From assembly GCF_004010195.1 (NCBI RefSeq), contig NC_057719.1, positions 11,357,822 through 11,421,821 of the forward strand: a stretch of DNA of 64,000 bases. The letters run 5' to 3'. Source of the stretch: Chiloscyllium plagiosum (Eukaryota). The position numbers and the translations under genes are program-made. Shown here in pieces: positions 16,952 through 61,170 of this stretch. The notes under the pieces are model-generated. The model ran no database searches, was not told where the DNA came from, and saw only the letters and a program-made list of their open reading frames with translations. Position 1 is the stretch's first letter. Each line of letters opens with the position of its first letter.

Positions 16952-17410
16952 AAAAGAGGGGTCAAGAAAGCACACAAGTAATTTTAAAGATGTTGAGACA
17001 TGAAGATGATGATATTCAGGCATCTCATAGGAACATAGAAGCAAGTGTCAGCCATTCAGCCCTTCAAACCTGTTCCACTATTCCCACTGATAAGAAGCAG
17101 TACTTTGAAAGCTAGTGCCACCAAATAAACCTGTTGGACTATAACCTGGTGTTGTGTGACTTTTAACTTCGACCATCCAATTCAGTACACTATTCCTGCT
17201 TTCTCCCCATATCCTTTGATCCCTTTAGCCTCAAGGACCATACCTAACTTCTTGAAAACATTCAATGTGCTGGGCCCAAACCCTTTCTGTAGCAGATATT
17301 TGAAGTGCCACAACAAGCTGAGCAGTGTGCCACAAAATTATCAGGAAGCAGCAGTTGTTTTATCTGAGACCAGGTGCCTTATCATAGGGACAGGAGAACA
17401 GCACCTGGCA

Positions 17411-17648
17411 CCAAAAGAGAAAATGCTGGAAAATCTCAGCAGGTCTGGCAGCATCTGTAAGGAGAGAAAAGAGCTGACGTTTCGAGTCTAACTGACCCTT
17501 TGTCAAAGCTTTGACAAAGTGTCAGTTAGACTTGAAACATCAGCTCTTTTCACTCCTTACAGATGCTGCCAGACATACTGAGATTTTCCAACATTTTCTC
17601 TTTTGGTTTCAGATTCCAGCATCTGCAGTAATTTGCTTTTAACTTTTT
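17411..17648. mobile_element. PLE-derived zero-spacer palindrome (~198 bp) with a 41-nt extension
   Basis: Mirror centre AAG|CTT at 17508/17509; arms 17410-17508 and 17509-17607. 15-bp TSD gaacagcacctggca at 17396-17410 and 17649-17663. Confidence 0.88.
17472..17510 (-). ncRNA. Minimal hammerhead motif with U3-A8 core variant
   Basis: Minus strand reads agct TTGACAA a gggtc agtta gactc GAAA cgt c agct. The C3-G8 pair is replaced by U3-A8. Confidence 0.7.
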
Positions 17649-17764
17649 GAACAGCACCTGGCATTTAATTGGTGAATAGCACTGTCACTCAGTGCACAGA
17701 GGCAGAGGTGGGGGCTAATTCCCAGCATTTGATTGGTGGGTGGTGCTATCGCTCAATGCATGCA

Positions 17765-17796
17765 GTGTGTGTGTGTGTGTATGTGTGTGCGTGTGT
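17765..17796. repeat. (TG)n microsatellite
   Basis: Read directly from the sequence. Confidence 0.9.
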
Positions 17797-18894
17797 CTGA
17801 GTCTGTCACCTTTGGCTTGAGCCAGTCAGATCGTGCACCACAGCGACTGCGGATTATAAATGCCATAGCAGAGCCAAGAACAGGTTGAGTCTGGGAGTTG
17901 CATTGGAATGGGGAGCTCATCAAGGATCTGCTCACCGCTTCACCTGAGACCTAATGCTGGATGGCAGCTCTCCATGACCACTCCACACAATGACTACTGC
18001 AAGAAGGGCACATTTTGAGAGAGGCAGCTGGATGTTTTCCGCATGGATGGTGCACAGTGAGGGAAGGAGGAGGATATGCAGGGTGTGGGCATAGTGCTCA
18101 CGAATCACTTACTTTCTCAATTCTGAGTATAGCACAGTAAATGTAATGCTTAGAGCAATCAATACTGCTGAAAAAAGTGGGTGTGGCATGGAATTGTTTG
18201 CCACTTTTAAATGTGCCGTGATCCTGAAAAGGTTGGGGTCCTCCGGCAGATATGTGGAGCTGAGTCCACCAAAAGATCAGTCACGACCTTATTGAATGGC
18301 AGAGTGGGCTCAAAGGTCCAGATGGCCTACTCCTGCTCCTAGTTCTTATTGGCATAGACCAATGAGCCAAGGACGGAATTACGTGCTCTGCTACTAATAG
18401 AAACAATGATGTGGAGGAGCCGGTGCTGGACTGCGGTTTACAAAGTTAAAAATCACCAGATTACAGTCCAACAGGTTTATTTGGAAGCACTAGCTTTCAG
18501 AGCGCTGCTCCTTCCTAAGGTGAATGTGGAGCATAAGACCATAAGACACAATTTATAGCAAAAGATTATAATGTCATGCAACTGAAATGATTTATTGAAC
18601 AAATTTGGATTGAACAAATCTGGTTTTGGTTCCTTGATATGTAAATCTCAGAACTTCTTTTAAGTCACTTTCTCGAGATAACTTAAGGTTTTATAACAAA
18701 AGATGACATCTCAGCTCAGACAATGCATTAAAGGTGTGAGGTTGGAGTCTGTCTGTATCCCAATCTTGAGTCAGACTGGTTCTATTTCCAAAGTGGAATT
18801 TACAAAATATTACATGTATTGACTGCCTATAGATTGTGCATTTTTTGAGCAAAATAGAATGTATCTGCAAATACAAATTCACCCATAGACTTGT

Positions 18895-18995
18895 ATGTGT
18901 GTGTGTGTGCGTGTGTGTGAGAGAGAGAGAGAGAGAGGAAGCGAGCATGAGAGTGTGTGAGAGTGCAAATGAGAGAGTGTGTGTTTGTGTGTGTG
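18895..18995. repeat. Compound (TG)n/(GA)n microsatellite
   Basis: Read directly from the sequence. Confidence 0.9.
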
Positions 18996-19324
18996 AAAGC
19001 TTAGACAGACTCTAACCTCACACCTTTAATGCATTGCGTGAGCTGAGATGTCATTTTTTGTTATAAAACCTTAAGTTATTTCGAGAAGGTGACTTAAAAG
19101 TAGTTCTGGGATTTATATATTCATGAACTGAAACCTGCTACATTTTCTAAAAGATGAAAGACTTAACAACAATCCAATTGTTCAATATATCATTTCAGGG
19201 TGGTGGTGGAAGGTTGTTTTTCAGACTGGAGGCCTGTGACCAGCGGAGTGCCACAAGGATCAGTGCTGGGTCCACTACGTTTCATCATTTATATAAATGA
19301 TTTGGATGTGAGCTTAACAGGTAT

Positions 19325-19555
19325 AATGATTCGGAGATGACGGTGTTGGACTGGGGTGTACAAAGTTAAAAATCACACAACACCAGGTTATAGTCCAACA
19401 GGTTTAATTGGAAGCACTAGCTTTCGGAGCGACGCTCCTTCATCAGGTGGTTGCGAAAGCTAGTGCTTCCAATTAAACCTGTTGGACTATAACCTGGTGT
19501 TGTGTGATTTTTAACTTTGTACACCCCAGTCCAACACCGGCATCTCCAAATCATT
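19325..19555. mobile_element. PLE-derived fold-back element (~102-bp arms) nested in a CR1
   Basis: Arms 19325-19426 and 19454-19555; same family as 25783-26275. The right end abuts an assembly gap. Confidence 0.85.
19415..19449 (-). ncRNA. Minimal type-I hammerhead ribozyme motif (PLE), intact
   Basis: Minus strand reads cac CTGATGA a ggagc gtc gctcc GAAA gct a gtg. Confidence 0.85.
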
Positions 19556-19556
19556 G

Positions 19557-20182
19557 NNNNNNNNNNNNNNNNNNNNNNNNNNNNNNNNNNNNNNNNNNNN
19601 NNNNNNNNNNNNNNNNNNNNNNNNNNNNNNNNNNNNNNNNNNNNNNNNNNNNNNNNNNNNNNNNNNNNNNNNNNNNNNNNNNNNNNNNNNNNNNNNNNNN
19701 NNNNNNNNNNNNNNNNNNNNNNNNNNNNNNNNNNNNNNNNNNNNNNNNNNNNNNNNNNNNNNNNNNNNNNNNNNNNNNNNNNNNNNNNNNNNNNNNNNNN
19801 NNNNNNNNNNNNNNNNNNNNNNNNNNNNNNNNNNNNNNNNNNNNNNNNNNNNNNNNNNNNNNNNNNNNNNNNNNNNNNNNNNNNNNNNNNNNNNNNNNNN
19901 NNNNNNNNNNNNNNNNNNNNNNNNNNNNNNNNNNNNNNNNNNNNNNNNNNNNNNNNNNNNNNNNNNNNNNNNNNNNNNNNNNNNNNNNNNNNNNNNNNNN
20001 NNNNNNNNNNNNNNNNNNNNNNNNNNNNNNNNNNNNNNNNNNNNNNNNNNNNNNNNNNNNNNNNNNNNNNNNNNNNNNNNNNNNNNNNNNNNNNNNNNNN
20101 NNNNNNNNNNNNNNNNNNNNNNNNNNNNNNNNNNNNNNNNNNNNNNNNNNNNNNNNNNNNNNNNNNNNNNNNNNNNNNNNNN
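19557..20182. other. Assembly gap
   Basis: Run of N. Confidence 1.
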
Positions 20183-21679
20183 ATAAAAGAGACCTAAGGG
20201 GCAACTTTTTCATGCAGAGGGTGGTATGTATATGGAATGAGCTGCCAGAGGAAGTGGTGGAGGCTGGTACAATTGCAACATTTAAAAAGCATCTGGATGG
20301 GTATATGAATAGGAAGGTTTTGGAGGGATATGGGCCAGGTGCTGGCAGGTGGGACTAGATTGGGTTGGGATATCTGGTTGGCATGGACAAGTTGGACTGA
20401 AGGGTCTGTTTCCATGCTGTACATCTCTATGACTCTACGACTCTATGAGTTACATTTCACTAAGCTTTTACTATAAATTCTGTCTTATGGTATTGTGCTC
20501 TACATGCACGTGATGAAGGAGCAGCTCTCCAAAAAGCTAATCCTTCCAAACAGTCTTGTTGGACTATAACATGATGCTGTGCGATTTTTAACTTAATAGC
20601 AACAAGAGAACATTAAGTGCATAAATTCCAATCGTGAATTCAGGAGACGTTTCAGGAGAAAGGGTGTGATAAGACTGAAATGGGTTACCACTTGGAGTAT
20701 TGAACTTGCACCAATTAATGTATTAAAACGGGAAGTTAGATAAATGCAAGAATGGATTATCTGGTGATTTATTCCATTGCAAGATTGGTGTGTCTGAACT
20801 GATTGTCACATTTCCTACATTAAGACAGTTGTACAACAGAACTGTACTAACTGGAGAAAGGTTGAGGGGTCCTGGCACTTACGCTGCACTGTATAAATGC
20901 AACTCCTTTTTTCTCAGTCTGATTAACACCCCAGTCTCTAAGTTACATTTCTACCAGCAGATCCAAGCTCAAGAGACTGACTTGGAAATCGTGCCTATTT
21001 GTCTGCTCCTCTTCCTCTACTTTAGCCAGCAGTGCAATGGGGTGCAGAGTGAGGCGTCGTCAATTGTGAAGTGAGATTAAAAAACATTCTGACAATACCT
21101 TCCCGCACTGAAGGAGGTCAGAATATAGAGTACTGAGGTCTGGTTCAACACAGTCCGACACTTTCCACTCCCTCATTCAAACATCTGGTCCCTGTGCTTG
21201 AGCCTGGACAATCAGGAGACTTTTTGTATCAGTGGACATCACAGCCAGCAACAAATCCAACCTTCATCTGGCATCCATAAATGTGCAGTACAGTACGCTT
21301 GGGGGGAAAAGGGTCTACTGAGTAACAACCAGGAGTCGTGAACCAAACTGAAATAAATGATTTGCATTTCTGTTGCTCAGAGATGTGGAGCTCAATGAGA
21401 GTGCTAGTGCCAACGGTTCCCTGGGCCTCTTGACACAGGTCAGGTTGGAATCTTCCTGGTCAATATGTTAAAAATGGTTTGGTAGCACAGAACTCAGGCA
21501 TTGCTAAAAAGAGGTAATAAATCAAAGCTTTTCATCTAGTGCTCATTAGGACTGCTATGCAAGAAAATCTTAGAAAGGAAACGACAATTTATACACCATG
21601 TTTTGTTAGACTATGGTTGGTGTGGGAAGCAGTGGAATCTATTAACTGCCTTAATTTAGCACAAGGGATGATATGGATG

Positions 21680-21892
21680 TTGTCCGCCCCAATCCAATCA
21701 GTGTTGGATTGGGGTGGACAAAGCCAGAAGTCACAGGACACCAGGTTATAGTCCAACAGGTTTATTTGAAATTACAAGCTTTTGAAGCACTGCCCCTTCA
21801 TCAGGTGAATGTCACCTGACAAAGCTCCAAAAGATTGTAATTTCAAATAAATTTATTGGACTACAGCCTGGTGTTGTGTGACTTCTGACTTT
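21680..21892. mobile_element. Decayed PLE-derived fold-back element
   Basis: Inverted arms at ~21720-21808 and ~21812-21892. The minus-strand hammerhead has GAAA changed to AAAA. Confidence 0.75.
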
Positions 21893-22061: not shown

Positions 22062-22097
22062 GTTCCTGATGAAGGGCTTTTGCCCGAAACGTCGATT
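22062..22097 (+). ncRNA. Minimal type-I hammerhead ribozyme motif (PLE), core intact
   Basis: gttc CTGATGA a gggc tttt gccc GAAA cgt c gatt, within a ~95-bp PLE fragment flanked by acatgg repeats (22057-22062 and 22156-22161). Confidence 0.8.
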
Positions 22098-22994: not shown

Positions 22995-23421
22995 GTGTTC
23001 AAAGTTTGTGCGAAGATTTGTAGCTTGGGTGCTCGTTGTTGTGGTTCTGTTCGCCGAGCTGGAAGTTTTTGTTGCAAACGTTTCGTAGCCACACACGCAG
23101 ACAACAAGCAATATGAATTCGACTGGGACAACACTACTATCACAGGGCAGGCCAGACAGAGAACAGCCAGGGAATTCCTAGAGACATGGCATTCATCCAC
23201 AAACTCCATCAACAAACACATCGACCTGGACCCAATATACCAACCACTACAGCGGACAGCTGAAACTGACAACCGGAAGCGGCAGGGACAGACCACTATA
23301 AACACCGGAGGAAACATCAAAGAAGCGCTTCGCAGGAGGCTCCCAAGCACTGATGATGTCGCCTAGCCAGGGGACGAAACGTTTGAAACGAAAACTTCCA
23401 GCTCGGCGAACAGAACCACAA
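22995..23421 (+). mobile_element. PLE 3' fragment (GIY-YIG C-terminus and pLTR) with an inverted pLTR at its left end
   Basis: Encodes HADNKQYEFDWDNTTITGQARQRTAREFLETWHSSTNSINKH. 23039-23086 is inverted relative to 23374-23423. Imperfect TSD caggaagc(t)c(t)taa at 22981-22994 and 23422-23434. Confidence 0.85.
23347..23386 (+). ncRNA. Minimal hammerhead motif downstream of a GIY-YIG coding remnant
   Basis: gca CTGATGA t gtcgcct agcc aggggac GAAA cgt t tga. The inverted sibling arm at ~23070-23086 has tgc, which restores helix I. Confidence 0.75.
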
Positions 23422-23779: not shown

Positions 23780-25420
23780 GATTACAGTGAGAGTTTTTAT
23801 AGCACAGAAAGGGGCCCTTTAACCCATTGTGCCTGTGCCAGTCATCAAACAACCATTTATTCTCACCCTATTTTCCAGCACTTTGCCTGGAGCTTTGTAT
23901 GCTGTAGCAATTTAACTGTCCATCTAAAGAGTTCTCAAAACTCTTCAGGGTTCCTACCTCTACCACCTTTTCAGCCAGTGATCGCCATATACTCACAACC
24001 CTCTGGGTTTAAAAATTTCCTAAAAACCCTTCTAAATGCCCTACACCTTACCTCAGAAAACTGTGTCCTCTGCTTATTGACCCCTATAATATGGCGAAAG
24101 TGAGTACTGCAGATGCTGGAGATTAGAGTCAAGAGTGTGGTTCTGGAAAAACACAGCAGGTCAGGCAGCATCTGAGGAGCGGGAAAATCGACGTTTTGGG
24201 CAAAAGCCCTTCATCAGGAATGAGGCTGGGAGCTGGGGGGGGGGAGCTATAATATGGGGCAAGGCATCTCTCTGTCTATTCTGAGTGTGCCCTCAGACGT
24301 TTATACATCTCAATCAGATCCACTACACCTCCACCCCAGGCTTCCCTGCTCTAAGGTGACCAACCCCAGTCTATCTCATCCCTCTTCATAGCATAACTGC
24401 TCCAGCCCAGGGAACATCCTGGTGAATCGCCTTTGCACCCTCTCTAGTGCAATCAATATTGTCCCTATGGCGTGCCAACCAGAACTGCACACAGTACTCA
24501 GCATTGCCTAAGTAATATTAGACACACTTGCATCATAACTTCCTTGCTCTTATATTAAATGCCTTGAGTAATAAAAGCAAAGTCTCCCCTGTACCTTCTT
24601 CACCACCTTATCTACCTATCCTGCAGCCTTCTAGGATTTACAGACATGCACACAAAGGTCCCTCTGATCCTTTCTACTTCCTAGTCCTTCCAAAATGCAT
24701 CATTTCATTTTTCGGGATTAAATTCCATTTGCCACTGTTCAGTCCATTCATATTGTCCTGTCGTCTAAGTCTATACACCCCACCGCCAATTTTCATGTCA
24801 TCTGCAAAATTACTGCTCATACTCCGACATTCATGTCTAAATCATTAATGTACACAGCAAACAGAAATGGCCCCAACACCAAACCCTGTAGTATGCCACA
24901 ATACAATACTTATTAGATACAATATACTAAAATACTTCTCTCTGAACCATGCTTCCAGTCGCTAAAACACCCTTCCACCTGCCACTAAGCCACTTTTAGA
25001 TCCAATTCAGTTGAATTTGTTGGATGTGATCTCCCCCCTTACAAACCTATCCTCGATTAATCCTTGCCTCTCTAAGTGGAGATTAATTCTGTCCCTCAGA
25101 ATGATTTTTATTACTTACCATAAATGTTAGATTTATTGGCCTATAGCTTCCTAGTTTATCCCAAACATCCTTTTTGAATAATTGTCCCACTTTAGCTAAT
25201 CCTCTGCCACCCCTCCTGTGGCCAGAGAGGATTGGAAAATTAATGGCAGCGTCTCTGTAATCTCCTCTCTTGCCTCTAACAACGTTAGATAGATCTCATT
25301 TGAGTTTTTTTTATAACGAAACCACTAATACTTTCCTCTTAATGCCAATTTGTTCAAGTGTATCTCAGTACCCCTCCCTGATTTCTAGACCTATACTGCC
25401 CTTCTCTATTGTGAGAATAG
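23780..25420 (-). mobile_element. Decayed CR1 3' half
   Basis: Reverse-complement CR1 motifs such as agaactgcacacagtactc and gtcatctgcaaa. Confidence 0.7.
24095..24246 (-). mobile_element. PLE pLTR fragment inserted in a CR1 remnant
   Basis: 11-bp TSD ctataatatgg at 24084-24094 and 24247-24257. Hammerhead at 24186-24221 with GAAA changed to AAAA. Confidence 0.82.
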
Positions 25421-25782
25421 AGTCTGACTCGAGCATGGAATACAGACAGACTGTAACCTTGTGCCTTTAATACATTGTCTGAACTGAGATGTCACTTTTT
25501 TAAAAAATAAAACCTAAGTTATCTCAGGACTGTGATTTTAAAGAAGTTCTGGGATTTACATATTGATCACTCGAAACCTTAGTTGTTTTTAATGTCCCAT
25601 ATCCGTGCTGCCTGTACCAAGTTAAAACTCCTCGATATTGTCCCAGCTCAGCTCAACCTCAGGATTTCACACTTAAATCTGTCTATTTATTAAACCCAAG
25701 CTGACACCGTCATTGCATATATATCAGAAGCTGAGTGTCAAATACTTCCAGCCCTCCCCTGCCCTGACTGTATCTCTGAATG

Positions 25783-26275
25783 ATTTGGAGATGCCGGTGT
25801 TGGACTGGGGTGTACAAAGTTAAAAATCACACAACACCAGGTTATAGTCCAACAGGTTTAATTGGAAGCACACTAGCTTCCGGAGCAGCGCTCCTTCATC
25901 AGGTGATTGTGGAGGGCTCGATCGTAACACAGAATTTATAGTAAAAATTTGCAGTGTGATGAAACTGAAATTATACATTGAAAAATTGATTGTCTGTTAA
26001 GCCTTTCGTCTGTTAGAATACAGTGATAGTTCACTGATTTACACATGAAAGAAGTGAACTATCACTGTATTCTAACAGATGAAAGGCTTAACAGACAATC
26101 AATTTTTCAATGTATAATTTCAGTTACATCACACTGCAAATTTTTGCTATAAATTCTGTGTTACGATCGAGCCCTCCACAATCACCTGATGAAGGAGCGC
26201 CGCTCCGAAAGCTAGTGTGCTTCCAATTAAACCTGTTGGACTATAACCTGGTGTTGTGTGATTTTTAACTTTGTA
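25783..26275. mobile_element. PLE-derived fold-back element with 223-bp inverted arms
   Basis: Arms 25813-26035 and 26053-26275, 17-nt spacer, ~30-nt one-sided extension. Direct repeat tgtatctctgaatg at 25769-25782 and 26272-26285. Confidence 0.9.
26183..26217 (+). ncRNA. Minimal type-I hammerhead ribozyme motif (PLE), intact
   Basis: cac CTGATGA a ggagc gcc gctcc GAAA gct a gtg. Helix I cac/gtg, helix II ggagc/gctcc, palindromic helix III AGCT. Confidence 0.85.
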
Positions 26276-27444: not shown

Positions 27445-27746
27445 GTTAGCACTGCTGCCTCACAGCGCCAGAGACCTGGGTTCAATTCCCGCCTCAGGCA
27501 ACTGCCTGTGTGGAGTTTGCACATTCTCCCCATGTCTGCGCGGTTTTCCTCCGGGTACTCCAGTTTCCTCCCACAGTCCAAAAATGTGCACGTTAGGTAA
27601 ATTGGCCATGCTAAATTGCCTGTAGTGTTAGGTGAAGCGGTAAATGTAGAGGGATGGGTCTGGGTGGGTTGCTCTTCGGAGGGTCGGTGTGGACTTGTTG
27701 GGCTGAAGGGCCTGTTTCCAAACTGTAAGTAATCTAATCTAATCTA
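27445..27746 (+). mobile_element. tRNA-derived SINE (HE1/V-SINE type), slightly 5'-truncated
   Basis: B box GGTTCAATTCC, central domain, (aatct)n tail. Confidence 0.88.
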
Positions 27747-28948: not shown

Positions 28949-28950
28949 AC

Positions 28951-31380
28951 AAAAAAAAAACTACAGATGCTGGAATCCAAAGTGGACAGGCAAGAGGCTG
29001 GAAGAACGCAGCAAGCCAGGCAGCATCAGGAGGCGGAGAAGTCGACATTTCGGGTGTAACCCTTCTTCAGCACTGGGGGTGGGTGTAGCGGGAGCTGCAG
29101 ATAAAGGGGGTGGTGGGGACAGGGTGGTGAAGTGTGGATAAGTGAAGACAGGTAGAGGGTATGACCTGGTTGGTCAAAGGGAGGAATGAATCTGGTTGGT
29201 GGCAGGGGGGAAATGGAAAGGAGGGGAAGGGGCTGGAAGGGAGGTTATTTGAACGTGGCGTTACCGTGCTATAGACTGCCCAGGTGGAAGATGAATTGTT
29301 GCTCCTCTAATGAGTGTTTTGGTTCTTTGCTGCAATGGAGGGGCCTGGCTGAAACGATCGGCGAACCATTCCCTGAGTTTATGTTTGGTGTCCCCGATGT
29401 AGAGACGACCACACTGGACACAGTAAACTAGGTTGGATGAGAGGCAGGTGAACCTCTGTCTCACCTAGAAGGACTGCTTGGGGTCCTGGATGGAGGTGAG
29501 GGGGGGTGATGCGCCGACAGGTTTTACATCTTTTCCGGTTGCAGGGGAAGGTATTTTGGGGTTTGGGGGGATTGGTAGGAAGAGTGGTGCAAACCATGGA
29601 CTGTTGAAGGGAACAGTTCTTGCAGAAGGCAGAGAGGGGTGTGGAGGGGAAAATATTGGCATTGGGGTCTAGTTGGAGTTGACAAAAGTGTTTAAGGATG
29701 ATGCATTGGATGTGGAGACTGTTGGGGTGGTAGGTGAGGACAAGGGTATTCTGTCTTTATTGCAGTTGTGAGGGGGTGTGGTTTAGAGCAGTGGAACAGG
29801 AAATGGAAGTGATGCGGCAGAGGGCTGTCTGGATGACAGAGGGATGGAAAGCATGTTGTTCGAAATCTGGGATGCTCGCGAGTGGAATGTCTCCTCAACC
29901 GAGCAAATGTGGCAGAGACAGAGGAATTGTGAGAATGGGATGCCGTTCTTGCAGGATACTGAATGGGAGGAGGTGTAGCCCAGGTAGTTATGGGAGTCTG
30001 GGGTTTGTAATAAACATCCGTCTAAAGACTGTCATCGGGGATGGAAACGGAGAGGTCAAGAAAGGGGAACGAGATGGACCAAGTGAATTTGAGGGCGCAG
30101 TGGAAGTTGTGGGCGAAGTCGATGAATTGCTCCAGTACAGCCTGAGTGCAGGACGCTGCATCGATGCAGTCATCAATGTAACAGCTGAAGAGTTGGAGCA
30201 CAGCGCCTGTATAAGTACTGAAGAGGGACTATTCAACATAGCCGACAAAGAGGCAGTGTAGCTGGGGCCCATCCGGTGCCCATGGTCACCTCCTGCATTT
30301 GAAGGAAATGGGAGGAGTTGAAGGAAATGTTGTTGAGGGTGAGGACCAGTTCGGTGAGGCGAAGGAGGGTATGGCTGGAGGGGTCTGGATGGGTCTGTTG
30401 GAGAGGAAGAAGCTGAGGGCCTGGAGGCCATCCTTGTGGGGTATGGACGTGTATAAGGACTGCATGTCCATAGTGAAGATAAAGCGCTGGCGGCCAGGGA
30501 ACTGAAAGTTGCTGAAGAGATGGAGGGCATGGTTGGTGTTGTGGATGTAGGTGGGAAGTGGTTGAACCAAGGGGGAGAGGATAGAGTCGAGGTAGGAGAT
30601 GGGTTTGGTGGGGCAGGAACATGCTGAGACGTTGGGTTGGTCAGGGTAGTTGGACTTGTGGATCTTGGGGAGCAGGTAGAACTGGGCAATGCAGGGCTGG
30701 GGGACTATGAGTTTGGCGGCAGTGGAGGGGAGATCACCAGAGTCAATGAGGGCACGGACAATGCGAGTGATTTTGGCATAATGGGTCGTGGGCAAGGGGG
30801 AGGTTGGATGTGGTGTCGGAGGGTTAGTGTTTGGTCTCTGTGACATAGAGGCCCGTTGTCCAGACTATCACCGCCCGCCTTTGTCAGCAGGTTTGATGGT
30901 GAACCGAGGGTTAGTGCGGAGAGAGTGCAGCGTTGCACATTTGGAAGGGGTGAGGTTGAAGTGGGTGAGAGGGGTGGAGAAATTGAGGCGCCAATGCCAT
31001 GTCAGAAATCTGCAATGAAGAGGTCTAGGTGGGTACAATGTCAGCGGGGGATGACCAAGTGGAGAAGCAAGGTTGGAGCCAGGAGGAGGGGTCCTCAGAG
31101 GGAGGTTGAGAGTTTTTGTCAAAGAAGAAGGCACGGAAGCGGAAGCGGCAGAAGAAGAGCTCCATGTCATGGTGGGTCCAGAATTCATTGAGGTGGGGGG
31201 GCAGAGTGGTATGAACATGAGCCCTTTCCTGAGGACAGGCCGTTCAGCTTCAAAGAGTTTGAGATAATGTAGGATAGTAAATACATGGCAAGGCTCAGGG
31301 TTGGGGTTTTGGGGTGGGGGGTCCCGAGGTGGCTGATGGAGGGGATGGTGGTAGGGTGAAGTGGGTGAGGAAAATCCTCT
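28951..31380 (-). mobile_element. Penelope-like retroelement (probably Neptune-type), near full-length and frameshifted: RT, Cys-rich linker, GIY-YIG endonuclease, pLTR
   Basis: Minus-strand fragments include IKPADKGG, FYLLPKIHK and FTMDMQSLYTSIPH (PLE RT), PCNRKRCKTC (linker) and FTCLSSNLVYCVQCGRLYIGDTKHKLREWF (GIY-YIG). A hammerhead-bearing terminus follows. Confidence 0.88.
29040..29074 (-). ncRNA. Hammerhead motif in the pLTR of the long PLE copy, decayed
   Basis: Minus strand reads agtg CTGAAGA a gggt tac accc GAAA tgt c gact. Confidence 0.65.
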
Positions 31381-33802: not shown

Positions 33803-34517
33803 NNNNNNNNNNNNNNNNNNNNNNNNNNNNNNNNNNNNNNNNNNNNNNNNNNNNNNNNNNNNNNNNNNNNNNNNNNNNNNNNNNNNNNNNNNNNNNNNNN
33901 NNNNNNNNNNNNNNNNNNNNNNNNNNNNNNNNNNNNNNNNNNNNNNNNNNNNNNNNNNNNNNNNNNNNNNNNNNNNNNNNNNNNNNNNNNNNNNNNNNNN
34001 NNNNNNNNNNNNNNNNNNNNNNNNNNNNNNNNNNNNNNNNNNNNNNNNNNNNNNNNNNNNNNNNNNNNNNNNNNNNNNNNNNNNNNNNNNNNNNNNNNNN
34101 NNNNNNNNNNNNNNNNNNNNNNNNNNNNNNNNNNNNNNNNNNNNNNNNNNNNNNNNNNNNNNNNNNNNNNNNNNNNNNNNNNNNNNNNNNNNNNNNNNNN
34201 NNNNNNNNNNNNNNNNNNNNNNNNNNNNNNNNNNNNNNNNNNNNNNNNNNNNNNNNNNNNNNNNNNNNNNNNNNNNNNNNNNNNNNNNNNNNNNNNNNNN
34301 NNNNNNNNNNNNNNNNNNNNNNNNNNNNNNNNNNNNNNNNNNNNNNNNNNNNNNNNNNNNNNNNNNNNNNNNNNNNNNNNNNNNNNNNNNNNNNNNNNNN
34401 NNNNNNNNNNNNNNNNNNNNNNNNNNNNNNNNNNNNNNNNNNNNNNNNNNNNNNNNNNNNNNNNNNNNNNNNNNNNNNNNNNNNNNNNNNNNNNNNNNNN
34501 NNNNNNNNNNNNNNNNN
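33803..34517. other. Assembly gap
   Basis: Run of N. Confidence 1.
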
Positions 34518-38300: not shown

Positions 38301-39057
38301 CTTAGCAGGAGTTGTACACTTAATGATAAGGTCCTAGGGAGTGCTGCTGAACAGAGACACCTTGGAGTGCAGGTTCATAGCTCCTTGAAAGTGGAGTCGC
38401 AGGTAGATAGGATAGTGAAGAAGGCGTTTGGCATACTTTCCTTTATTGGTCAGAGTATTGAGTACAGGAGTTGGGAGGTAATGCTGCTGCTGTATGGGAC
38501 ATTGGTTAGGTCGCAGTTGAAATACTGCGTGCAATTCTGGTCTCTTTCCGATTGGAAAGATGTTGTGAAACTTGAAAGGTTTCAGAAAAGATTTACAAAG
38601 ATGTTGCCAGGGTTGGAGGATTTGAGCTATAGGGAGATGCTGAACAGGTTGGGGCTGTTTTTCCTGGAGCATTGGAGGCTGAGGGGTGACTTTATAGAGG
38701 TTTACAAAATTATGAGGGGCATGGATAGAGTAAATAGACAAAGTCTTTTCCCTGGGGTCGGGGAGTCCACAGCTAGAGGGCATAGGTTTCGGGTGAGAGG
38801 GCAAAGATATAAAAGAGACCTATGGGGCAACCTTTTCACACAGAGGGTGATACATGTATGGAATGAGCTGCCAGAGGAAGTGTGGAGGCTGGTACAATTG
38901 CAACATTTAAGAGGCGTTTGGATGGTATATGAATAGGAAGGGTTTGGAGGGATATGGGCCGGGTGCTGGCAGGTGGGATTGGGTTAGGATATCTGGTCGG
39001 CATGGACGGGTTGGACCAAAGGGTCTGTTTCTATGCTGTACCTCTCTTGACTCTATA
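35336..39057 (+). mobile_element. CR1 (HER1-like) LINE, near full-length and decayed, nested in a minus-strand CR1
   Basis: ORF1 ICSSCQMW...YICNKC, GDSLVRG, VHTGTND; ORF2 [24 protein letters not shown]; gactctat tail. Confidence 0.92.
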
Positions 39058-39274
39058 ACCAAATGTCTCCTCATCTCTGTCCTAAATGATCTACCCCAAA
39101 TCTACAGACGGTGACCCCTGGTTTTAGACACATCCATTATCGGGAACATCCTTCCTCCATCTACCCTGTCTAGTCATGTTAGAAATTTATAGTCACTATA
39201 AGATCCCCTCTCATTCGTCTGAACCACAGAGAAAACTATCCTAACCTAGTCAATCTATCCTCATACATCAATCC

Positions 39275-42488: not shown

Positions 42489-42781
42489 TTCAAAGTTTGT
42501 GAGAAGATTTGTAGCTCAGGTGCTCATTGCTGTGGTTCTGTTTGCCGAGCTGGAAGTTGTTGTTGCAAACATTTCGTCCCCTGTCTAGGTGACATCCTCA
42601 GTGCTTGGGAGCCTCCTGTGAAGCACTTCTGTGGTGTTTCCTCCGGCATTTATAGTGGCCTGTCTCTGCCGCTTCCGGTTGTCAGTTTCAGCTGTCCGCT
42701 GTAGTGGCCGGTATATTGGGTCCAGGTCTATGTGTTTGTTGATGGAGTTTGTGGATGAGTGCCATGCTTCTAGGAATTCCC
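42489..42781 (-). mobile_element. PLE 3' fragment, same family as 22995-23421, inserted in a LINE
   Basis: High similarity to 22997-23420. 13-bp TSD tgtctcttattcg at 42476-42488 and 42782-42794. Confidence 0.88.
42565..42604 (-). ncRNA. Minimal hammerhead motif, helix III CpG-decayed
   Basis: Minus strand reads gca CTGAGGA t gtcacct agac aggggac GAAA tgt t tgc. Confidence 0.7.
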
Positions 42782-45700
42782 TGTCTCTTATTCGCTTTGG
42801 TCATAGCTTGGCATTTGTATGGTGCGAGTGTTGCTTGGCACTTGTCAGTCCAGGCCTGGATATTTTCCAGATCTTGTTGCATTTGAACATAGAGTGCTGT
42901 AGTGTCTGAAGAGTCGTGAATGGTGCTTAACATTGTGCAATCATTAGCAAACATCCCCACTTCTGACCTTATGATGGAGGGAAGGTCTTTGATGAAGCAG
43001 CTGAAGATGGTTGGGCCTAAGACACAACACTGAAGAATTCCTGCAGAGATAACCTGGAGCTGAGATAACTGGCGTCCAACATCCATGACCATCTTCCTAT
43101 GTGTCAGGTATGATTCCAATCCTCAGAGAGTTTGCTCCCTTATACTCATTGATTCCAGTTTTTGTAGAGCTCCTTGATGCCACACTCTATCAAATGCAGC
43201 CTTGATGTCGAAGGCTGTCACTCTCATCTCACCTCTCAAAATCAGCTCTTTTGCCCATCTTTGGACCAAGTCTGAAAGGAGGTCAGGAGCTGAGTGGCCC
43301 TGGCAGAACTCAAACTGGACATCACTGAGCAGGTTATTGTTGTGCAAGCGCTGATGATAGCACTGTTGATGACACCTACCATCACTTTACTGATGATCGA
43401 GAGCAGACTGATGTGGCAATGATTGGCTGGTTTGGATTTGTCTTGCTTTTTATGTACACGACATACTTGGGCAATGTTCCACATTGTCAGGTAGATACTA
43501 GTGTTGTAACTGTACTGAAATAACTTGGCTAGGGAGCAGCAAGCCTTCAGTGTTACTGCCAGAATGTTGTCAGAGCCTGTAGCCGTTTCAGTATCCAGTG
43601 CCTCCAACCGTTTTTTTGGTATCTGTAATTCTGGGGACCACCGGAGGAGGCCAAGATGGATCATCCATTTGGCACAAGCTTCAGCCTTACCTTTTGCACT
43701 GATATGCTGGGCTTTTCCATCATTGAGGATAGGGATATTTGCGGAGCATCCTCCTTGAGTGAGTTGTTTAGTTCTCCACCGCCATTCATGACTAGATGTG
43801 GCTTAGATCTGATCCATTGGTTGTGGGATCACTTAGCTCTGTCTACCACTTGCTGCTTGTGCTGTTGGTCATGCAAGTAGCTGTTTGGTGGCTTCACCAG
43901 GTTAACACCTCATCTTCCGGTATGCCTGGTACTGTTCCTGGCATATCTTCCATTGGTCCCCTGGCTTGATGATAATGGTCGCATGGGGAATATGCCAGGC
44001 CATGAGGTTTGCCTCTCTGTCTCACCTTGCCAGTCCACAAAAACAAGAAGTCTACCAAAAATGCCCAGATTGTGCTGAAGTACAATTCTGCTGCTGCTGA
44101 TGGCCCACAGCGCCTCATGGATGCCCAGTCAAATGGCTAGGTCTGTTTAAAGTCTTTCCTATTCAGCACGATGATAGTGCCACAGAACACGATGGATATT
44201 ATTCTCAATGTGAAGGCGGGACTTTGTCTCCATAAAGACTGTGCAGTGGTCACTCTTACCGATACTGTCATGGACAGATGAATCTGGAGCTGGCAGATTG
44301 GTAAGGATGGGGTCAAATATGTTTTTCCCTCTTGGTTCAACTCAAGTGAGTAACCAGGGCAGGGGGGAATGGAATTGGCTAGAAGGGAGTAGAATTTTTA
44401 ACACACGGTTTCAAGTAATGTCTTTGGTTTCCCCAAAGTTGAATTAAATAAACTTCAGGATCTGCCCAAGTCTGGGCACCAATGAAGGGAGTCACCAGTA
44501 CAGATTCAGTCAAAATATCTGCAGCAGAGACAGTCAGCAGCTGACTTTTCAGAGAAATAAATAAATCCTGTCATGCCAAGATCGTGTATTCTTAAAATGA
44601 GAGTTTAGCATCTAAGGGATGGTATCAATTAGTATGGCTTCACGGGAAGGGTAATGGAAAGCTGGAACTTTCACCTTCAAAACATTGTTCTCGTCAGGGA
44701 GATCAACTGAAAACTTTTTAAAAACTGGGATCTAAAGATTTTAGGCAAAAGAAACAGCACTTTCCAAACCAATGACCATGTCCATCTAGAAGGACAAGGA
44801 CATGGAGTCACCACAACCTTCAAGTTCCCCTCCAAGCCACTCACTATCCTGACTTGGAAATTATCACCATTCCTTCATTGTCGCTGGGTCAATATCCTGG
44901 AACTCCCTCCCTTATGGGTCAACCCACAGCAGGTGGACTACAGCAGTTCAAGAAGGCAGCTCATTCCCCCTTCTCAAGGACAACTAGGCACAGGCAATAA
45001 ATGCTGGCCTGCCAGTGATGTCAACATCCCACAAATGAATAAATTTTAAACAAAACAGTTTGGTCACAACCTAGTTAAATGTAAGGGTAGGTTTGAAGAC
45101 CTCCTCCTGTTCCTAAATAGATTGTGGTGATTCTGAAAGGAGGAAGAGAATGGAGGAGCAACGATTTACTGGAATTATGTTATAGTAGGTAATTGTGGAG
45201 CATTTCAGTGTCGCCCCCTCACAGCTGGACAAGACAGAGTGTTGAAGAAGGATATCACAATCAACTACACTAAACTCCATTGAGAGGAGAAAGTACCATA
45301 GTCAGAAAGGACAGCTAACACTTTGGGGGCTGAGTATTAATATGTCATCGTTGATCATCACAATGGAGAGAGAGACAGAGAGACAGAGAAAAATATGGGG
45401 GAATCAGTGGATGTGGCATACACAGATTTTGCAGAAGGCGCTTGAGATTCCATCAAAGACATACAACTGGTAAGCGTTACTGGTTTCAGTCTGCATAAAA
45501 TACTTTCAAATTCCATACTGACAGCTATCCCTTGAAATTAATTTCACACCTTTTGCATGGCAAAATTGGCTCACACTGTCAACAATCCATATTTGTGGCA
45601 TAGTTACCTTCCATGGCTCCAACAATGATATAAAGCATACCCTCAGTTCCATTTCTGTAATCTTGTACACTATGTAACAGATAAATAATCTGACAAGTCA

Positions 45701-48700
45701 TTTTGTTTGGCAAAAGTGCATGACTGAACATTAGCAATAATTTCAGGCTCTTCAGTTTCTCCTGCAACCACACAAACCCAGTAATAAAAAACATACACAG
45801 ACAGACGAAGGACAACTTCTAACTGAGAAAACTGACTTTCCGTATTTTAATTCCTAACTCAATTTAAGCCTGGCTTCTCAGACCCTTTGTTCGTTTCACT
45901 GCCTCTCTGTCTCACCTTGCCCTGTCCACAAAAACAAGAAGTCTGCTAAGAATGCCCAATAGAACATTCAGGACCAGAGACTTACAGACATAATGGGCTT
46001 GGTCTTTATCGATTAGCAAGACAAGCTAATGGATTACTTGTCTGCAGACTTTCCAGAAAACAAGCTCAGTACTGGTGTGAGATGCTTTGTTTTAAACGCC
46101 CAGTATTAAGAAAGATTATTTTTCCAAATTCTGTGGGAAAAGGCTCTTAAAAAGAATGACAAAAGCTAAAAGAGGGAGAGTGCATAAAGTTCAATATACC
46201 CTCATCGCCATTTGACAGGAAAACATGAAACATACTCTTGGAATAAGGAGGGAAGTAATACTGTGGTAGTTCTCTCTCGTCAGACTGCATTTCCCTGAGG
46301 ATCCAGGACAGTCCTGCAAAATTTCACAAATCTATGCCCATGTTTTAACATTTTCTTCGATTCTCTTGAATCAATCAGGTTTTAAAAACAGTGGAAACCA
46401 AACTCTCAATAGTGTTCTCAACAAATATGATGTTATTTATTTTATCCTCCTCAACCCCTCATAACTGAAGCCTTTCACAATATGTCATCCCTAACACCAC
46501 CTCATCTGTTTTCCAATTCAGATGTTTCCATCCTTTACCTATACAATAGTAGCCAAAAGAAGTCTAGCAATGGTTTATCTTCCTACCCCTCTGCTATTAC
46601 CTCTGGAGTTCCCACATATCCATCCTTGCAACCTCATTCCCATCATCTTCTTCAGGTGCCCTCTTGGTAAAATCATCCACAACCATGGGGTCAGCATGTA
46701 TACGGCTGCCACACAAGCGGTACTTCTCCACTTTCTCTCACAATTCTTCTGCAATCTCACAACTTGGAAATACTTCTGCAGCCATGGATGTGGACTTTGA
46801 TCCAGCTGCAAGTACAAGAAACAGCAAGTTGCTTCTCTAAGTGGTGTGCACCTTGAAAGATACATGCTGCCCTGGTCCTTCTCAGTAGTAGAGGTCACAA
46901 GCTTGGAAGATGCATTCTAAGAACCCTTGGGGAGTTCTTGCAATGCATCTTGCAGATGATTTTACACTTTGCTGCCACAAAGCATCAGCAGCAGCGGATG
47001 AGGTGTCAATCAAGCAAGCAAATGGTGGACAAGCTTTCAGGAGTCAGGAATTGAGTTTTTCACCACATAATTCCTAGCCTCTGACTTGCTCTTGAAGCCA
47101 TAGCATTTATATGGTTGATTAAATTGTTTCTGGTCAATGATAAGCTCAGTATGTTGATAATGAGCAATTCAGTGATGGCAACGCCTTTGACATTCAAGGA
47201 ATGATCGTCAGAATGTCTCTTGTCGGAAGTGAGCATTGTCTGGTATTTCTGTAGCGTGAACATTACTTGCCAATTCTCAGTTCAAACCTGGACATTGCCA
47301 GTGTCTTGCTGCTTTCAGATATGGGCTGCATCAGTATTGAAGACTGAGAGAAGATCTGATAGAGGCTTTCAAAATCATGACCAGACTGGATAGAGTTGAT
47401 AGAGAGAAGCTGTCCCCACTCTTAAAAGAAGAAAAAGCATGATATGACAAAGATCTAAAATAATGTGCAAACAAAGCAACAGCAAAGTGAAAAATACTTT
47501 TTTCACACCAAGTTGTTAGGGTATGGAATGTACTATCTGGACAAAATGGAGGCAGGTTCAACTAAGGCATTTAAGAGGGCACTGGATGAGTATTTGGATA
47601 GAAATAATGTTCAGGGAAATGGGGGAAATGGCAAGAGAACGGCACTGGGTAAGAGAACCACTTTTTGTTTTAATTCATTCAAGGGACATAGAAATCACTA
47701 GCCAGCCAGTATTTATTTCCCATCCCTAAGAGTCCCAAAGAGTCAACCACACTGCCGTGGATCTGGAGTCTCATGTTGGTCAAACCAGGAAAGGGTGGCA
47801 GATTTCCTTCCCTAAAAGGACACTAGTGTACCAGTTATTTCCGACAACTGACAATGGTTTTATGGTCATCCCAGATTTTTTTTTATTGAATTCAAATTTC
47901 ACCACCTGCAGAATTTCAACCAGGGTCCCCAGAACATTACCTACATCGCTGGATTTATGGTCTAGTGATAATATCACTAGGCCATTGCCTCTCCATCTTC
48001 TCTGATGAAGAGTCCCTGGACTCAAAATGTTAGCTCTGCTTTCTTCCCACAGGCGCTGCCAGAAGTGCTGAGTTTCTCTAACAATTTGTTCTTGGCTCAG
48101 GTTAAAGACTTCATCCCAGGGCTGTCATATCCAGCAATACAATACGGCAGTGGAGTATTATCACACACAAAGCATAAGAGGAGGTTGACATTTGAATAGA
48201 AGCAATAGCCAGAGGAATACGTATTACTGAGCCAAACTGGCACAAGAGTCTTTCCCTTTGAAATCTGGTTTGCCTTGGTCGATAAAAGACAGCTTTAGGA
48301 ATTTATAAATATCTGTAAAAACCACCTGCTGAAGTAGTAAATCAAGGTTAGTTTATTGCCAATTTTCACCCATTCCCTCTCTTAACTCTAAGGAGGGAAA
48401 ATGTTTTCATGGATGGTACTCAGATCCTAGTGTGTTCTTCAGAAGTGCTTTGCAGACACTTCACACTCTTAAGTATTGTTTTGCAAATGAAGGTGCCAGT
48501 CCTGAAATTTAGAAGGGGCCAGCAACACCCTCCCACCGCCAATCCCGTGCTCTGATTGTAAACTTTACATGAAAGCGTGCAGTCAAATTCATATCTAGTG
48601 GAGGACATCACAGCCTCCTGGTTCAATCCTGCTCCTACCCGGTACCCACCAGATAATCAGGAAGATGACCTCAGTGGAAATTGGGAATGGTGGTGGCCAG

Positions 48701-48853: not shown

Positions 48854-49263
48854 GCTGAAAATGTATTGCTGGAAAAGCGCAGCAGGTCAGGCAGCATCCA
48901 GGGAACAGGAGAATCGACGTTTCGGGCATAAGCCCTTCTTCAGGAATGAGGAAAGTTTGTCCAGCAGGCTAAGATAAAAGGTAGGGAGGAGGGACCTGGG
49001 GGAGAGGCGTCGGAAGGATGCCTTCCTTGAAGAAGCTCTCTTCCTCCCTCTACAAAGATTTCGCTTTTCCAGCAACACATTTTCAGCTCTGATCTCCAGC
49101 ATCTGCAGACCTCACTTTCTCCTCAAAGATTTCAATCTACTGCGAATCCTCTTACAAGGATGCCCTCCTTGAAGAAGCTCTCTTCCTCCCTCTACAAAGA
49201 TTTCGCTTTTCCAGCAACACATTTTCAGCTCTGATCTCCAGCATCGGCAGACCTCACTTTCTC
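48854..49263. mobile_element. Rearranged PLE pLTR insertion with inverted and tandemly duplicated segments
   Basis: A ~108-bp unit is duplicated at ~49014-49124 and ~49156-49265. 15-bp TSD ctgtgctgataacta at 48839-48853 and 49264-49278. Confidence 0.85.
48912..48947 (-). ncRNA. Minimal type-I hammerhead ribozyme motif (PLE), core intact
   Basis: Minus strand reads attc CTGAAGA a gggc ttat gccc GAAA cgt c gatt. One U-U mismatch in helix I. Confidence 0.8.
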
Positions 49264-50348
49264 CTGTGCTGATAACTACACCAGAAACCAATTTAAGATT
49301 GTCATTTAATCATAGAGAATTTTATTTAGTGCATCAGAAGCAACAAATACTCACACACAGGACTCCATGATAAAAACAGTTGAACATTATTTGGTGACAA
49401 ATTTTTATGAGCTCATCAAGTTGGCTCCACCATTCAACGAGATCATGAATAACCTAACAGTCATCAATTCTACTTTTCTGCTTTTCCCCAAAACCTTTAA
49501 TTCCCCAAGTGGATTAAAAATCTGTCTGTCCCAGCCTTGAATATATTTAATAGCCAGCCTCAATAGCCCTCTAGTTTTGGACTTTGCTCTTTGACTCTAT
49601 AACAGCCCTCTGCGGTAAAGAATTTCATAGATTCACTGCCGGTGAGAAAAGAAATCCCTTCTCATCTTGTCTTAAATGGGTGACTCTTTGCTCTGAGGTT
49701 GTGCCCTTTGGTCCCAGATTCTCCCGTGAGCAAATAGGAGTACAAGGACTAATCGGGCACTGCTAATATTGATTTAGGAAAGGCAAATCATGTTTGGCAG
49801 CTATGCTCTATTAGCAATTGACCGATGGACTATTTATTTTCTCTGAGCTATCTTAATGGAATTTCAGAAAATGTTTGATAAGATGCCTCATATAAAGCTT
49901 GTTAGTAAGGTTCAGGAGCATGGTTCTAAAAGAAAATAAATAAAGCAATGGAACAATAGGTTAGGTTAACCAAATATCGCTCTGTTGCAGCAAAGTTTCA
50001 AGTAATGTATCTGAGGCGCCAGGAGGAGGTCAAATTTTGTCCAGTCCAGTATTTACATGAATAAATCTGCAGTTATTACATCAATGAAGAAGCTTCCTGT
50101 ATATAATTACCTGCTTCATTTCCTATATTATAATATGGAAACTTTGAAAAATTGACAATAAAGCATTTCAGAAGAAGAAACTTTCACTTTTTAAAATTCA
50201 TTCACGATGAAGATGTTACTGGTGAGATTAGCCTTTGTTGTCTATGTCTAATTACTCAGAAGGTAGTTAAGAGTCAACCACATTGTTGTGGTTCTGAAGA
50301 CACAAGTAGGCTAGACCAGGAAAATAGCAGTTTCTTCTCCTAAAGGAT

Positions 50349-53069: not shown

Positions 53070-53214
53070 CAGGAATAAATATTTTATTCCTGATGAAGGG
53101 CTTTTGCCCGAAACGTCTTTTTTCCTGCTCCTTGGATGCTGCCTGAACTGCTGTGCTCTTCCAGCACCACTAATCCAGAATCTGGTTTCCAGCATCTGCA
53201 GTCATTGTTTTTAA
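53070..53214 (+). mobile_element. PLE pLTR fragment inserted in a SINE tail
   Basis: 13-bp TSD ccaacaagtccat at 53057-53069 and 53215-53227. Short inverted start catcaggaataaa / tttattcctgatg. Confidence 0.85.
53086..53117 (+). ncRNA. Hammerhead core with the helix I 3' strand lost
   Basis: attc CTGATGA a gggc tttt gccc GAAA cgt c, followed by a T run instead of gatt/gaat. Confidence 0.6.
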
Positions 53215-53342: not shown

Positions 53343-53380
53343 AGTCAACGTTTCGAGTCCAATGACCTTTCTTCAGAACT
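53343..53380 (-). ncRNA. Hammerhead motif with a weakened helix II base
   Basis: Minus strand reads agtt CTGAAGA a aggtc attg gactc GAAA cgt t gact, within a PLE fragment at ~53270-53430. Confidence 0.55.
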
Positions 53381-54859: not shown

Positions 54860-55012
54860 GTCACGATTAGAGTGGTGCTGGAAAAGCACAGCAGGTCAGG
54901 CAGCATCCGAGGAGCAGGAAAATCGACGGTTCAAGCAGGAGCTCTTCATCAGGAATGAGGCTGGGAGCCTCTAGGGTGGAGAGATAAATGGGAGAAGGGT
55001 GGGGCCGGGGAG
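54860..55012 (-). mobile_element. PLE pLTR fragment in SNW1 intron 1, hammerhead decayed
   Basis: Similar to 24120-24235: gctggaaaagcacagcaggtcaggcagcatc ... cttcatcaggaatgaggctgggag. Confidence 0.75.
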
Positions 55013-56480: not shown

Positions 56481-56489
56481 GATTTTAAT

Positions 56490-60000: not shown

Positions 60001-60279
60001 TTAGTTTTCTGTAATGATTAATGTAGCTGAACAGATTGCTTGACCGTTTCAGAGGGCATGTTGTTTGTGGATCTGGAATTGCATGTAGGCCAGACAATGT
60101 AAGGACAGCAGACAAATCACGCTTACATATCATTTGTCCAGGCCTCTAGATTGCGAGCCCGGAAATCTCACCACTGATGACTTTCATAGCTAATTAATCC
60201 TTTTGCACCAGTAGTACTGGCATTTTTGTGAATGTTGATTGGAACAGTGAAAATAATGGTTCTTTTCTTTACTTTCAAG

Positions 60280-60433
60280 TTTTTTACCTGCACCAACCCA
60301 GCTGTCCCAGGATCAGCTGGAAGCTGAGGAAAAAGCTCGCTCCCAAAGAGTTAGACAGACCGCTTTAGTGGCATCGAGGAGAGAACCTCCCCCGTATGGA
60401 CACAGAAAGGGATGGGTTCCTCGCACTTTGGAG
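60280..60433 (+). CDS. SNW1: SNW1 coding exon 2
   Basis: Polypyrimidine tract and ttcaag| acceptor, GAG|gtaac donor, 154 nt. Encodes (S)FLPAPTQLSQDQLEAEEKARSQRVRQTALVASRREPPPYGHRKGWVPRTLE. Confidence 0.97.
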
Positions 60434-60957
60434 GTAACATCTGCAATGTCTTGGCTTGAGCAATTGCAATTTATTCAGTATCACAAGACTCGTACTTAAA
60501 CTAAATATTTAGCCGCAACGCTAATTAATTGCAACAAAGTAAATCTTGATGCTTATTTGTATCTTTAGCACTGCCAACTATTGTGGCAGAGGTAGAATAT
60601 CTTTCAATGAACTGCAGGTGTTCAGTTTTATTCACAAATGCTGCAGATTATCACAGGCAGGAGACTATATTTTAGCACTTTTTTATTTCTATGAAATGTT
60701 TAATTGCTTTTTTGAACACATTGGCCATTCATATATTGAGGTGAGCCGATAATGCACAGTAGGCAATCATGTGACAGCACAAAATAAGACAAAACACTAG
60801 AAGTGCATTGTAAGTTTTTCAATGTTCGAAAATCCAAGGTATGTCTGATGTCAAATATATCAGAACAGATTTTAGGTTTCCAGTGTTTTTTTAAGAAACT
60901 GCCAGTATTTGAGGTTCTTTTATTACCCTTACCCCAACATGTCTTATTTATAATTAG

Positions 60958-61170
60958 GGGAGAAAGTGAGGTCTGCAGATGCTGGAGATCAAAGTTGAAA
61001 CTTTATTGCTGGAACAGCACAGCAGGTCAGGCAGCATCCAGGGAACAGGAGATTCGACGTTTCGGGCACAGGCCCTTCTTCAGGAACGGCCTGTGCCCGA
61101 AACGTCGAATCTCCTGTTCCCTGGATGCTGCCTGACCTGCTGTGCTGTTCCAGCAATAAAGTTTCAACTT
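60958..61170. mobile_element. Young PLE-derived fold-back element in SNW1 intron 2
   Basis: Perfect 83-bp arms at 60992-61074 and 61088-61170, plus a 34-nt extension. 15-bp direct repeat cttatttataattag at 60943-60957 and 61168-61182. Confidence 0.92.
61052..61087 (-). ncRNA. Minimal type-I hammerhead ribozyme motif (PLE), intact
   Basis: Minus strand reads gttc CTGAAGA a gggc ctgt gccc GAAA cgt c gaat. Helix III palindrome ACGT, GUC cleavage triplet. Confidence 0.85.

Follow-up and report, generated by a model that had tools for sequence, protein, structure and literature searches.

We examined a stretch of 64,000 nucleotides of Chiloscyllium plagiosum DNA (contig NC_057719.1, positions 11,357,822 to 11,421,821 of the forward strand; hereafter the window), which holds a dispersed set of minimal type-I hammerhead motifs among the broken remains that Penelope-like elements (PLEs) have left. 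A preliminary description made from the letters alone had placed motifs at 18 positions and had traced them to PLE pseudo-long terminal repeats (pLTRs). Both points are borne out: all 18 positions contain a minimal type-I hammerhead motif or a decayed copy of one, and the motifs lie behind reverse transcriptase (RT) and GIY-YIG frames (Table 1). A descriptor specifying an exact CUGANGA, one base, a helix II of at least 3 bp, GAAA, a pairing NN, U and H found nine matches in the window, and a tenth site (53347–53376) retains an exact core with a broken first pair in helix II. The exact catalytic core (CUGANGA...GAAA...NUH), in which one base precedes helix II, is present at 10 of the 18 sites. 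When a helix I of at least 3 bp was also required, four strict matches were obtained as against one in 60 Markov controls.

The six sites first described as intact all have exact CUGANGA, GAAA and NUH cores together with helix II, although a helix I of 3–4 contiguous pairs is found in only three of them. The helix I of the motifs at 22066 and 48916 consists of two pairs, a U-U mismatch and one further pair, which corresponds to the family state, while at 23350 the third pair is mutated. Among the 12 sites described as damaged, eight indeed have changes in the core, but those at 29044, 42568, 53090 and 53347 have an exact core and damage to the stems only, and the motif at 42568 satisfies the full descriptor. 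The original list of helix I pairings needs one further amendment, in that the gttc strand given for 61052 is partly an inversion junction and the family state is attc. A decayed family D copy at 17476–17506(-) was absent from that list.

Table 1. Hammerhead motifs, associated PLE remnants and insertions in the window.
Positions	Strand	Feature	Details
17087..17114	+	Family B hammerhead	Decayed; G8 and helix II changed
17476..17506	-	Family D hammerhead	Decayed core; in back-to-back insertion ~17410–17648 with 15-nt shared flank
18491..18519	-	Family B hammerhead	One core change
19418..19446	-	Family B hammerhead	Exact core; helix I cac/gtg; triplet CUA; left arm of palindrome 19325–19555
20510..20539	+	Family B hammerhead	Decayed (C3, G12)
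21776..21804	-	Family B hammerhead	G12 changed; palindrome 21720–21892
22066..22093	+	Family A hammerhead	Exact core; copy starts 31 nt upstream of cut site
23082..23318	+	Poseidon-type GIY-YIG C-terminal remnant	Frame enters hammerhead; stop in loop II
23350..23383	+	Family C hammerhead	Exact core; triplet GUU
24190..24217	-	Family A hammerhead	G12 changed
25874..25902	-	Family B hammerhead	A13 changed; tailed left arm of insertion 25779–26275
26186..26214	+	Family B hammerhead	Exact core; tail-less right arm; 14-nt shared flank at 25769 and 26272
29044..29070	-	Family E hammerhead (gggt/accc)	Exact core; first helix I pair broken
29357..31195	-	Broken Neptune-type RT and GIY-YIG remnant	Upstream of family E hammerhead
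42568..42601	-	Family C hammerhead	Exact core; helix I gca/tgc
42636..42782	-	Poseidon-type GIY-YIG C-terminal remnant	
48002..48031	+	Family D hammerhead	G12 changed
48916..48943	-	Family A hammerhead	Exact core; commonest subfamily; triplet GUC
49014..49265	+	Duplicated family A piece	From tail to likely ORF start (ATG near 49160, ~135 nt past cut-site position)
53090..53117	+	Family A hammerhead	Exact core; 3' strand of helix I lost; tailed copy; 13-nt shared flank
53347..53376	-	Family D hammerhead	Exact core; first helix II pair broken
54925..54952	-	Family A hammerhead	A14 changed
60959..61170	.	Back-to-back family A insertion	Tailed left arm with exact hammerhead 61056–61083(-); tail-less right arm starts inside motif; 15-nt shared flank at 60943 and 61168

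Families, carriers and copy number

The motifs fall into five families (A to E), in keeping with the earlier estimate of at least five, with the caution that these represent only three unrelated lineages: B, C, and the group A/D/E, whose members have downstream sequence in common. By the rule that a CX2-5CXXC linker between the RT and the endonuclease (EN) marks the Neptune clade (PMC8557442), families A, B, D and E would be Neptune-type and family C Poseidon-type. A natural 893-residue frame belonging to family A (locus L074) contains RVT_1 (E 6e-8) followed by a C-terminal GIY-YIG domain (E 3.5e-4, below the cut-off), with a C-x4-C-x2-C linker at residue 741 on account of which we take the family A carrier to be Neptune-type. 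This frame ends 156 nt upstream of the motif and has an atlas score of 0.98 to RT/GIY-YIG clusters. The remnant preceding the family E motif in the window, 29357–31195(-), matches this Neptune-type RT-EN (tblastn, E 3e-89 and 4e-32) and has the linker, and those at 23082–23318(+) and 42636–42782(-) match the Poseidon-type frame of family C (tblastn, E 2e-47 and 4e-25); these account for the three copies described as lying directly behind GIY-YIG remnants. Pfam gave no match for any of the seven PLE-derived window frames, while tblastn with longer natural copies did. The family C motif follows a GIY-YIG frame with an RT thumb-like part and a YIGQTG motif, from which the CX2-5CXXC linker is absent, and the family B motif follows a GIY-YIG-like C-terminus and about 900 nt of untranslated region (read by eye). 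No open reading frame (ORF) was linked to family D, whose downstream letters are common to A and E.

At 23350–23383 and at other loci, the GIY-YIG frame of family C stops in loop II, and a different frame starts at an ATG within the core and stays open for 37 codons through the tail. A junction with an intact Poseidon 5' ORF was not found in the genome, where most long PLE frames span assembly gaps. The gaps in the window (8650–8651, 10330–11207, 19557–20182 and 33803–34517) lie in or beside repeats, one of them abutting the palindrome at 19325–19555.

Copy number was estimated from an unselected sample comprising 80 pieces, each 10 kb long and placed at a round coordinate (764,799 non-N bases in all). 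Here the descriptor matched 54 times, against 0 for the reversed pattern and 0, 1, 2, 0 and 1 for Markov-3 controls, giving a density of about 71 core-intact motifs per Mb and, by extrapolation to the 3.56 Gb genome, about 240,000 motifs (Poisson 95% range 180,000–313,000). Exact patterns matched 79,663 times for family A, 14,841 times for B and 4,600 times for C across the genome, and the reversed patterns yielded 0 against these 99,104 matches. When decayed and cut-short copies are included, the sample holds 148 copies of family A and 42 of family B, or roughly 660,000 and 190,000 genome-wide. Exact patterns and unselected sample agree with the very high copy number that had been suspected.

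Rfam returned 13 matches in the window at E≤10, none of them a hammerhead and none of that class above the gathering threshold; the best, mir-552 and mir-3202, are PLE palindromes below threshold. The suggestion that the families are uncatalogued is correct for Rfam but not for the class itself, which has been published (PMC4209133). Judged by title and start of abstract, the papers found in literature searches included no report of these motifs in sharks, although the supplements of PMC4209133 and a bioRxiv preprint may list cartilaginous fish. The folding energies of monomers were ordinary (z −1.6 to +0.8 in 10 of 10 folded) and did not separate motifs from shuffles. The Rfam microRNA matches at 25982–26106 and 17450–17567, both below threshold, cover palindrome centres only, and these hairpins could feed small-RNA pathways if transcribed.

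To examine the stems we used 12 natural representatives of the three lineages, chosen by the descriptor, with the core letters fixed by the search. Across helix I, helix II and 15.2/16.2, 99 of 108 positions pair compared to 67.3±3.5 in column shuffles (0 of 20,000 reach 99), a test that overstates significance because the representatives are related and helix II is part of the search, such that we treat the result as support and not as a probability. Most stem columns contain three to five pair types, and the claim that stems differ between families and yet pair is upheld. The palindrome at 15.2/16.2, which stands in place of helix III, is CG or GC in 10 of the 12 and TG in two: CG in A, C, D and E (TG by decay in two) and GC in B. 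Although stems and loops change, three unrelated lineages retain all catalytic letters, the NUH triplet (GUC, GUU, CUA or CUU) and this palindrome. Subfamilies of A vary in loop II, at base 7 and in the third pair of helix I, all of which are places where a hammerhead tolerates variation. Variation among single copies is largely CpG decay, and would therefore point to selection during mobility and not after insertion. Stem compensation between families agrees with a hammerhead; since neither copy ends nor RNA reads give a sign of cleavage, it is from the motif that we call these putative ribozymes.

Ends of the copies, RNA reads and back-to-back pairs

We mapped the 5' breakpoints of unselected copies with position 0 defined as the first base past the predicted cut, leaving out 10 and 9 window copies and six gap-adjacent copies. 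In family A, 49 of 142 ends fall at −35 to −26, where helix I has its first strand and the core begins, as compared with one at −60 to −41 and three at −1 to +1; 27 copies reach upstream of −40. Family B behaves alike, with 15 of 42 ends at −40 to −26 and none at the cut. Single, unpaired copies likewise start at −31 to −33. Genome-wide start patterns, which required four unlike bases ahead of the break, gave 1,685 starts at −31 for one family A subfamily.

The same patterns gave 102, 399 and 202 family A starts at −1, 0 and +1 (76,565 anchor matches). A genome-wide search for a cut-site excess in family B found none (48 at −1 versus 50 at 0). Twenty family A loci starting at 0 were inspected: four are small indels in intact motifs, five lack the core only, and most of the others are joined to an inverted arm via 2–3 common letters. 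For these reasons a cut-site footprint accounts for at most 1–2% of copies and is unproven. We did not accept such a footprint, given the family B counts and a family A signal confounded by CpG loss, indels and microhomology. The five copies without a core (L193, L194, L201, L205 and L208) have the first seven letters of the usual start followed directly by the cut site, and their kind makes up about 0.1% of copies.

Raw poly(A) single-cell reads from an organism carrying the family cover the motif on both strands, with depth falling smoothly past the cut site, where neither a step nor an accumulation of read starts or ends is seen (1,991 and 2,668 reads). Loose read ends lie at −32 and where the tails end, positions at which the DNA contigs have them too. 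Stubs within host transcripts account for 74–94% of reads, and the library would be biased toward uncut RNA; the data thus show the passengers to be largely uncut, and not that an active element never cuts.

The 3' ends form two groups about 35 nt apart, near +63 and +98 in family A, +57 and +93 in B, and +40 and +78 in C. In the unselected sample, 64 family A copies out of 148 and 26 family B copies out of 42 have a head-to-head partner no more than 500 bp away. Direct neighbours within 500 bp number four among the 148 family A copies, compared to 32 divergent pairs, and there is no head-to-tail array of units in the window. Among 39 back-to-back pairs taken from the search lists by spacing only, 33 pairs from three lineages carry the tail on exactly one arm (60959–61170 and 25779–26275 are examples from the window); of the remainder, two were scored as having both (one is one-tailed by eye), two as having none, and two touch gaps. 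A shared flank of 10–17 nt is present in 29 of the 39, and many junctions use microhomology. The copies display the PLE layout of a pLTR, an optional tail, an inverted 5' copy and a target duplication.

A 7–9 bp stem pairs +16 to +27 with the tail in all three lineages, its letters differing from one to another, and shows a two-sided change between C1 and C2. The number of shuffles (of 300) reaching it was 48, 51, 45 and 14 for A1, A2, A3 and E, 5 and 1 for B, and 11 and 1 for C, such that the evidence for the stem is suggestive for families B and C and falls short of significance for A. This stem between hammerhead and tail (+16 to +77; L152, L154, L162, L087, L174, L104 and the window copy at 29044) encloses the inner copy end.

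Origin of the copies and role of the motif

We think it likely that the motifs are minimal type-I hammerheads of Neptune- and Poseidon-type PLE pLTRs, which survive mostly as short, dead end-pieces copied from uncut RNA. The RNA of the element would start some 31–33 nt upstream of the cut site, at the first strand of the hammerhead, run through the tail region into the ORF, and carry the same stretch again at its 3' end. In family A about 35–45 nt lie beyond the tail before an ATG, the frame of which is kept in two subfamilies; this continuity would therefore place the motif at the front of the mRNA, and the promoter activity of a pLTR (PMC2377424) agrees with such a position. The element protein would nick both target strands 10–15 nt apart, and reverse transcription would begin at two sites separated by 35–38 nt, presumably through twin priming by one protein dimer, to yield back-to-back arms of which one is tailed and the other tail-less. 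Priming on the 5' copy of the tail region may produce stubs of 95–130 nt that halt at the RNA 5' end. The hammerhead would be under selection while the element is mobile, with copies decaying after insertion, most of them without a partner. Cutting may be conditional, occurring as a dimer via the palindrome ACGU/AGCU or with the help of the element protein. A more specific version is offered tentatively as a possibility: the insertions would be a fossil record of capped, uncut RNA beginning at the hammerhead, one dimer would prime both strands at outer and inner sites held apart by the stem, and the hammerhead would work like a switch, destroying or decapping the template instead of making it.

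Several observations weigh against this account. The start of the RNA is deduced from DNA ends alone, and an extra-G cap mark is not clear among the −31 starts listed (by eye, uncounted). Family C copies show no pile-up at the motif, albeit in 11 copies only, and the poly(A) reads cross the cut site undisturbed. The 399 family A starts at the cut position exceed the neighbouring counts of 102 and 202 and leave room for a small cut fraction, while the relatedness of the 12 representatives tempers the covariation test.

It seems rather unlikely that the motif no longer cuts and persists at the RNA 5' end as a structure that binds protein or acts as a promoter, or simply as a passenger of the element. 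The lack of a cut-site signal in family B and in the RNA reads agrees with this idea, Naiad PLEs thrive without a hammerhead, Craig et al. raise parasitism (PMC8557442), and hammerhead mutants leave insertion by the Poseidon element of Anolis carolinensis (PAc) unaffected in vitro (PMC11167929). However, the Anolis motif does cut with protein present, and the catalytic letters, NUH triplet and 15.2/16.2 palindrome persist across three unrelated lineages whose stems and loops differ.

The model of Cervera and De la Peña, in which hammerheads cut a precursor to unit-length RNA that circularises and forms the main template, strikes us as improbable here. The 27 of 142 family A copies that extend upstream of −40 are compatible with a circle, family A has a small excess of starts at the cut, and partial tandems are known. 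Nevertheless, a circle without a 5' end cannot yield the pile-up at −35 to −26, and cut linear RNA would start at 0, where only three of 142 ends are seen. The 20 inspected loci at that position also speak against it, being largely indels, core-only losses and short joins to an inverted arm.

Very improbable, in our judgement, is an origin of both the pile-up and the back-to-back layout in antisense-RNA self-priming or in template switching at the palindromic motif. Antisense self-priming has been proposed for inverted junctions by Arkhipova et al. 2013 (PMC3846280), and the frequent microhomology would suit it, but single unpaired copies start at −31 to −33 too, a stall at a fold would be expected on its 3' side, and the strict one-tail rule agrees with two distinct start sites. 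Chance look-alikes in repeat DNA, for which the missing Rfam match and ordinary folding energies might be cited, are ruled out by the reversed-pattern controls (0 versus 99,104), in line with the covariation and the fixed place of the motif in PLEs.

Elsewhere in the window, an exon-like frame at 62700–62940, a piece for which Pfam gave no match, presumably resembles SNW1/SKIP, and the window end may be intronic. Broken long interspersed element RT pieces, which we take to be CR1/L2-like, lie at 9745–11508, 36345–39063 and 42691–43800, with RVT_1 matches in two frames, and a 300-bp repeat resembling a short interspersed element occurs three times with 82–87% likeness (1937–2246, 13226–13531 and 27445–27746).

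Comparison with known systems

Minimal hammerheads in PLE pLTRs, including those of fishes, were described by Cervera and De la Peña in 2014, who reported no activity for monomers and a weak, dimer-dependent activity (PMC4209133). The present motifs share with that set the type I form, the lack of a helix III loop, an extra base between 9 and 10.1, the G10.1-C11.1 pair and the palindromic 15.2/16.2, as well as the presence of several families per genome, mostly solitary copies, opposite-strand pairs 100–700 bp apart, and hosts in Neptune and Poseidon of fishes. In contrast to it, helix I is only 3–4 bp here and helix II mostly 4–5 bp, and the estimate of about 240,000 (71 per Mb) compares with counts by their own descriptor of about 4,000 for coelacanth and about 9,000 for Xenopus. 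Cartilaginous fish are not named in the part of that text covered here.

A further parallel is PAc (Frangieh et al. 2024), where cutting is protein-assisted and not required for insertion, both target strands are nicked and extended, two RT start sites bound the tail, and uncut RNA is the main substrate (PMC11167929). Both systems place a hammerhead where pLTR and ORF meet and have two copy ends separated by the length of one tail, copies that here would likewise derive from uncut RNA, and no reads ending at the cut, and family C additionally has the AC-rich loop at its inner end and the core ATG with 37 open codons through the tail. The present families are known from sequence and RNA reads, and A, B, D and E would differ from PAc in being Neptune-type, with an ATG about 135 nt downstream in A. 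Insertions with inverted pLTRs in which one end bears a tail and the target is duplicated have also been described (PMC3846280, PMC8557442), and agree with ours in their head-to-head arms, 30–40 nt tail at one end and 8–15 nt duplication. Here the rule has been counted (33 of 39 pairs one-tailed, in three lineages) and many units span only 130–500 bp.

Non-LTR retrozymes (PMC7229834; bioRxiv 10.64898/2026.07.22.740005) likewise carry type I hammerheads in PLE-related repeats. They are defined by tandem head-to-tail units, each with a canonical type-I hammerhead, whereas the copies here are dispersed or inverted, form no head-to-tail arrays and are without the canonical 6-bp helix I. The preprint samples one chondrichthyan genome for tandem retrozymes and, in a section title, gives up to 120,000 canonical motifs for axolotl (bioRxiv 10.64898/2026.07.22.740005).

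The function of the PLE hammerhead was called unclear by Craig et al. 2021 (PMC8557442), and this genome provides a test bed for the question raised there and in PMC11167929, namely the role of the hammerhead and the origin of tails and inverted ends. Its copy ends can be counted in their hundreds of thousands, and young subfamilies offer natural constructs for assays of cleavage and priming. The motifs are further families of a published class, unusual in their countable copy ends and in a density that, at about 71 core-intact motifs per Mb, greatly exceeds the vertebrate counts in the published text examined.

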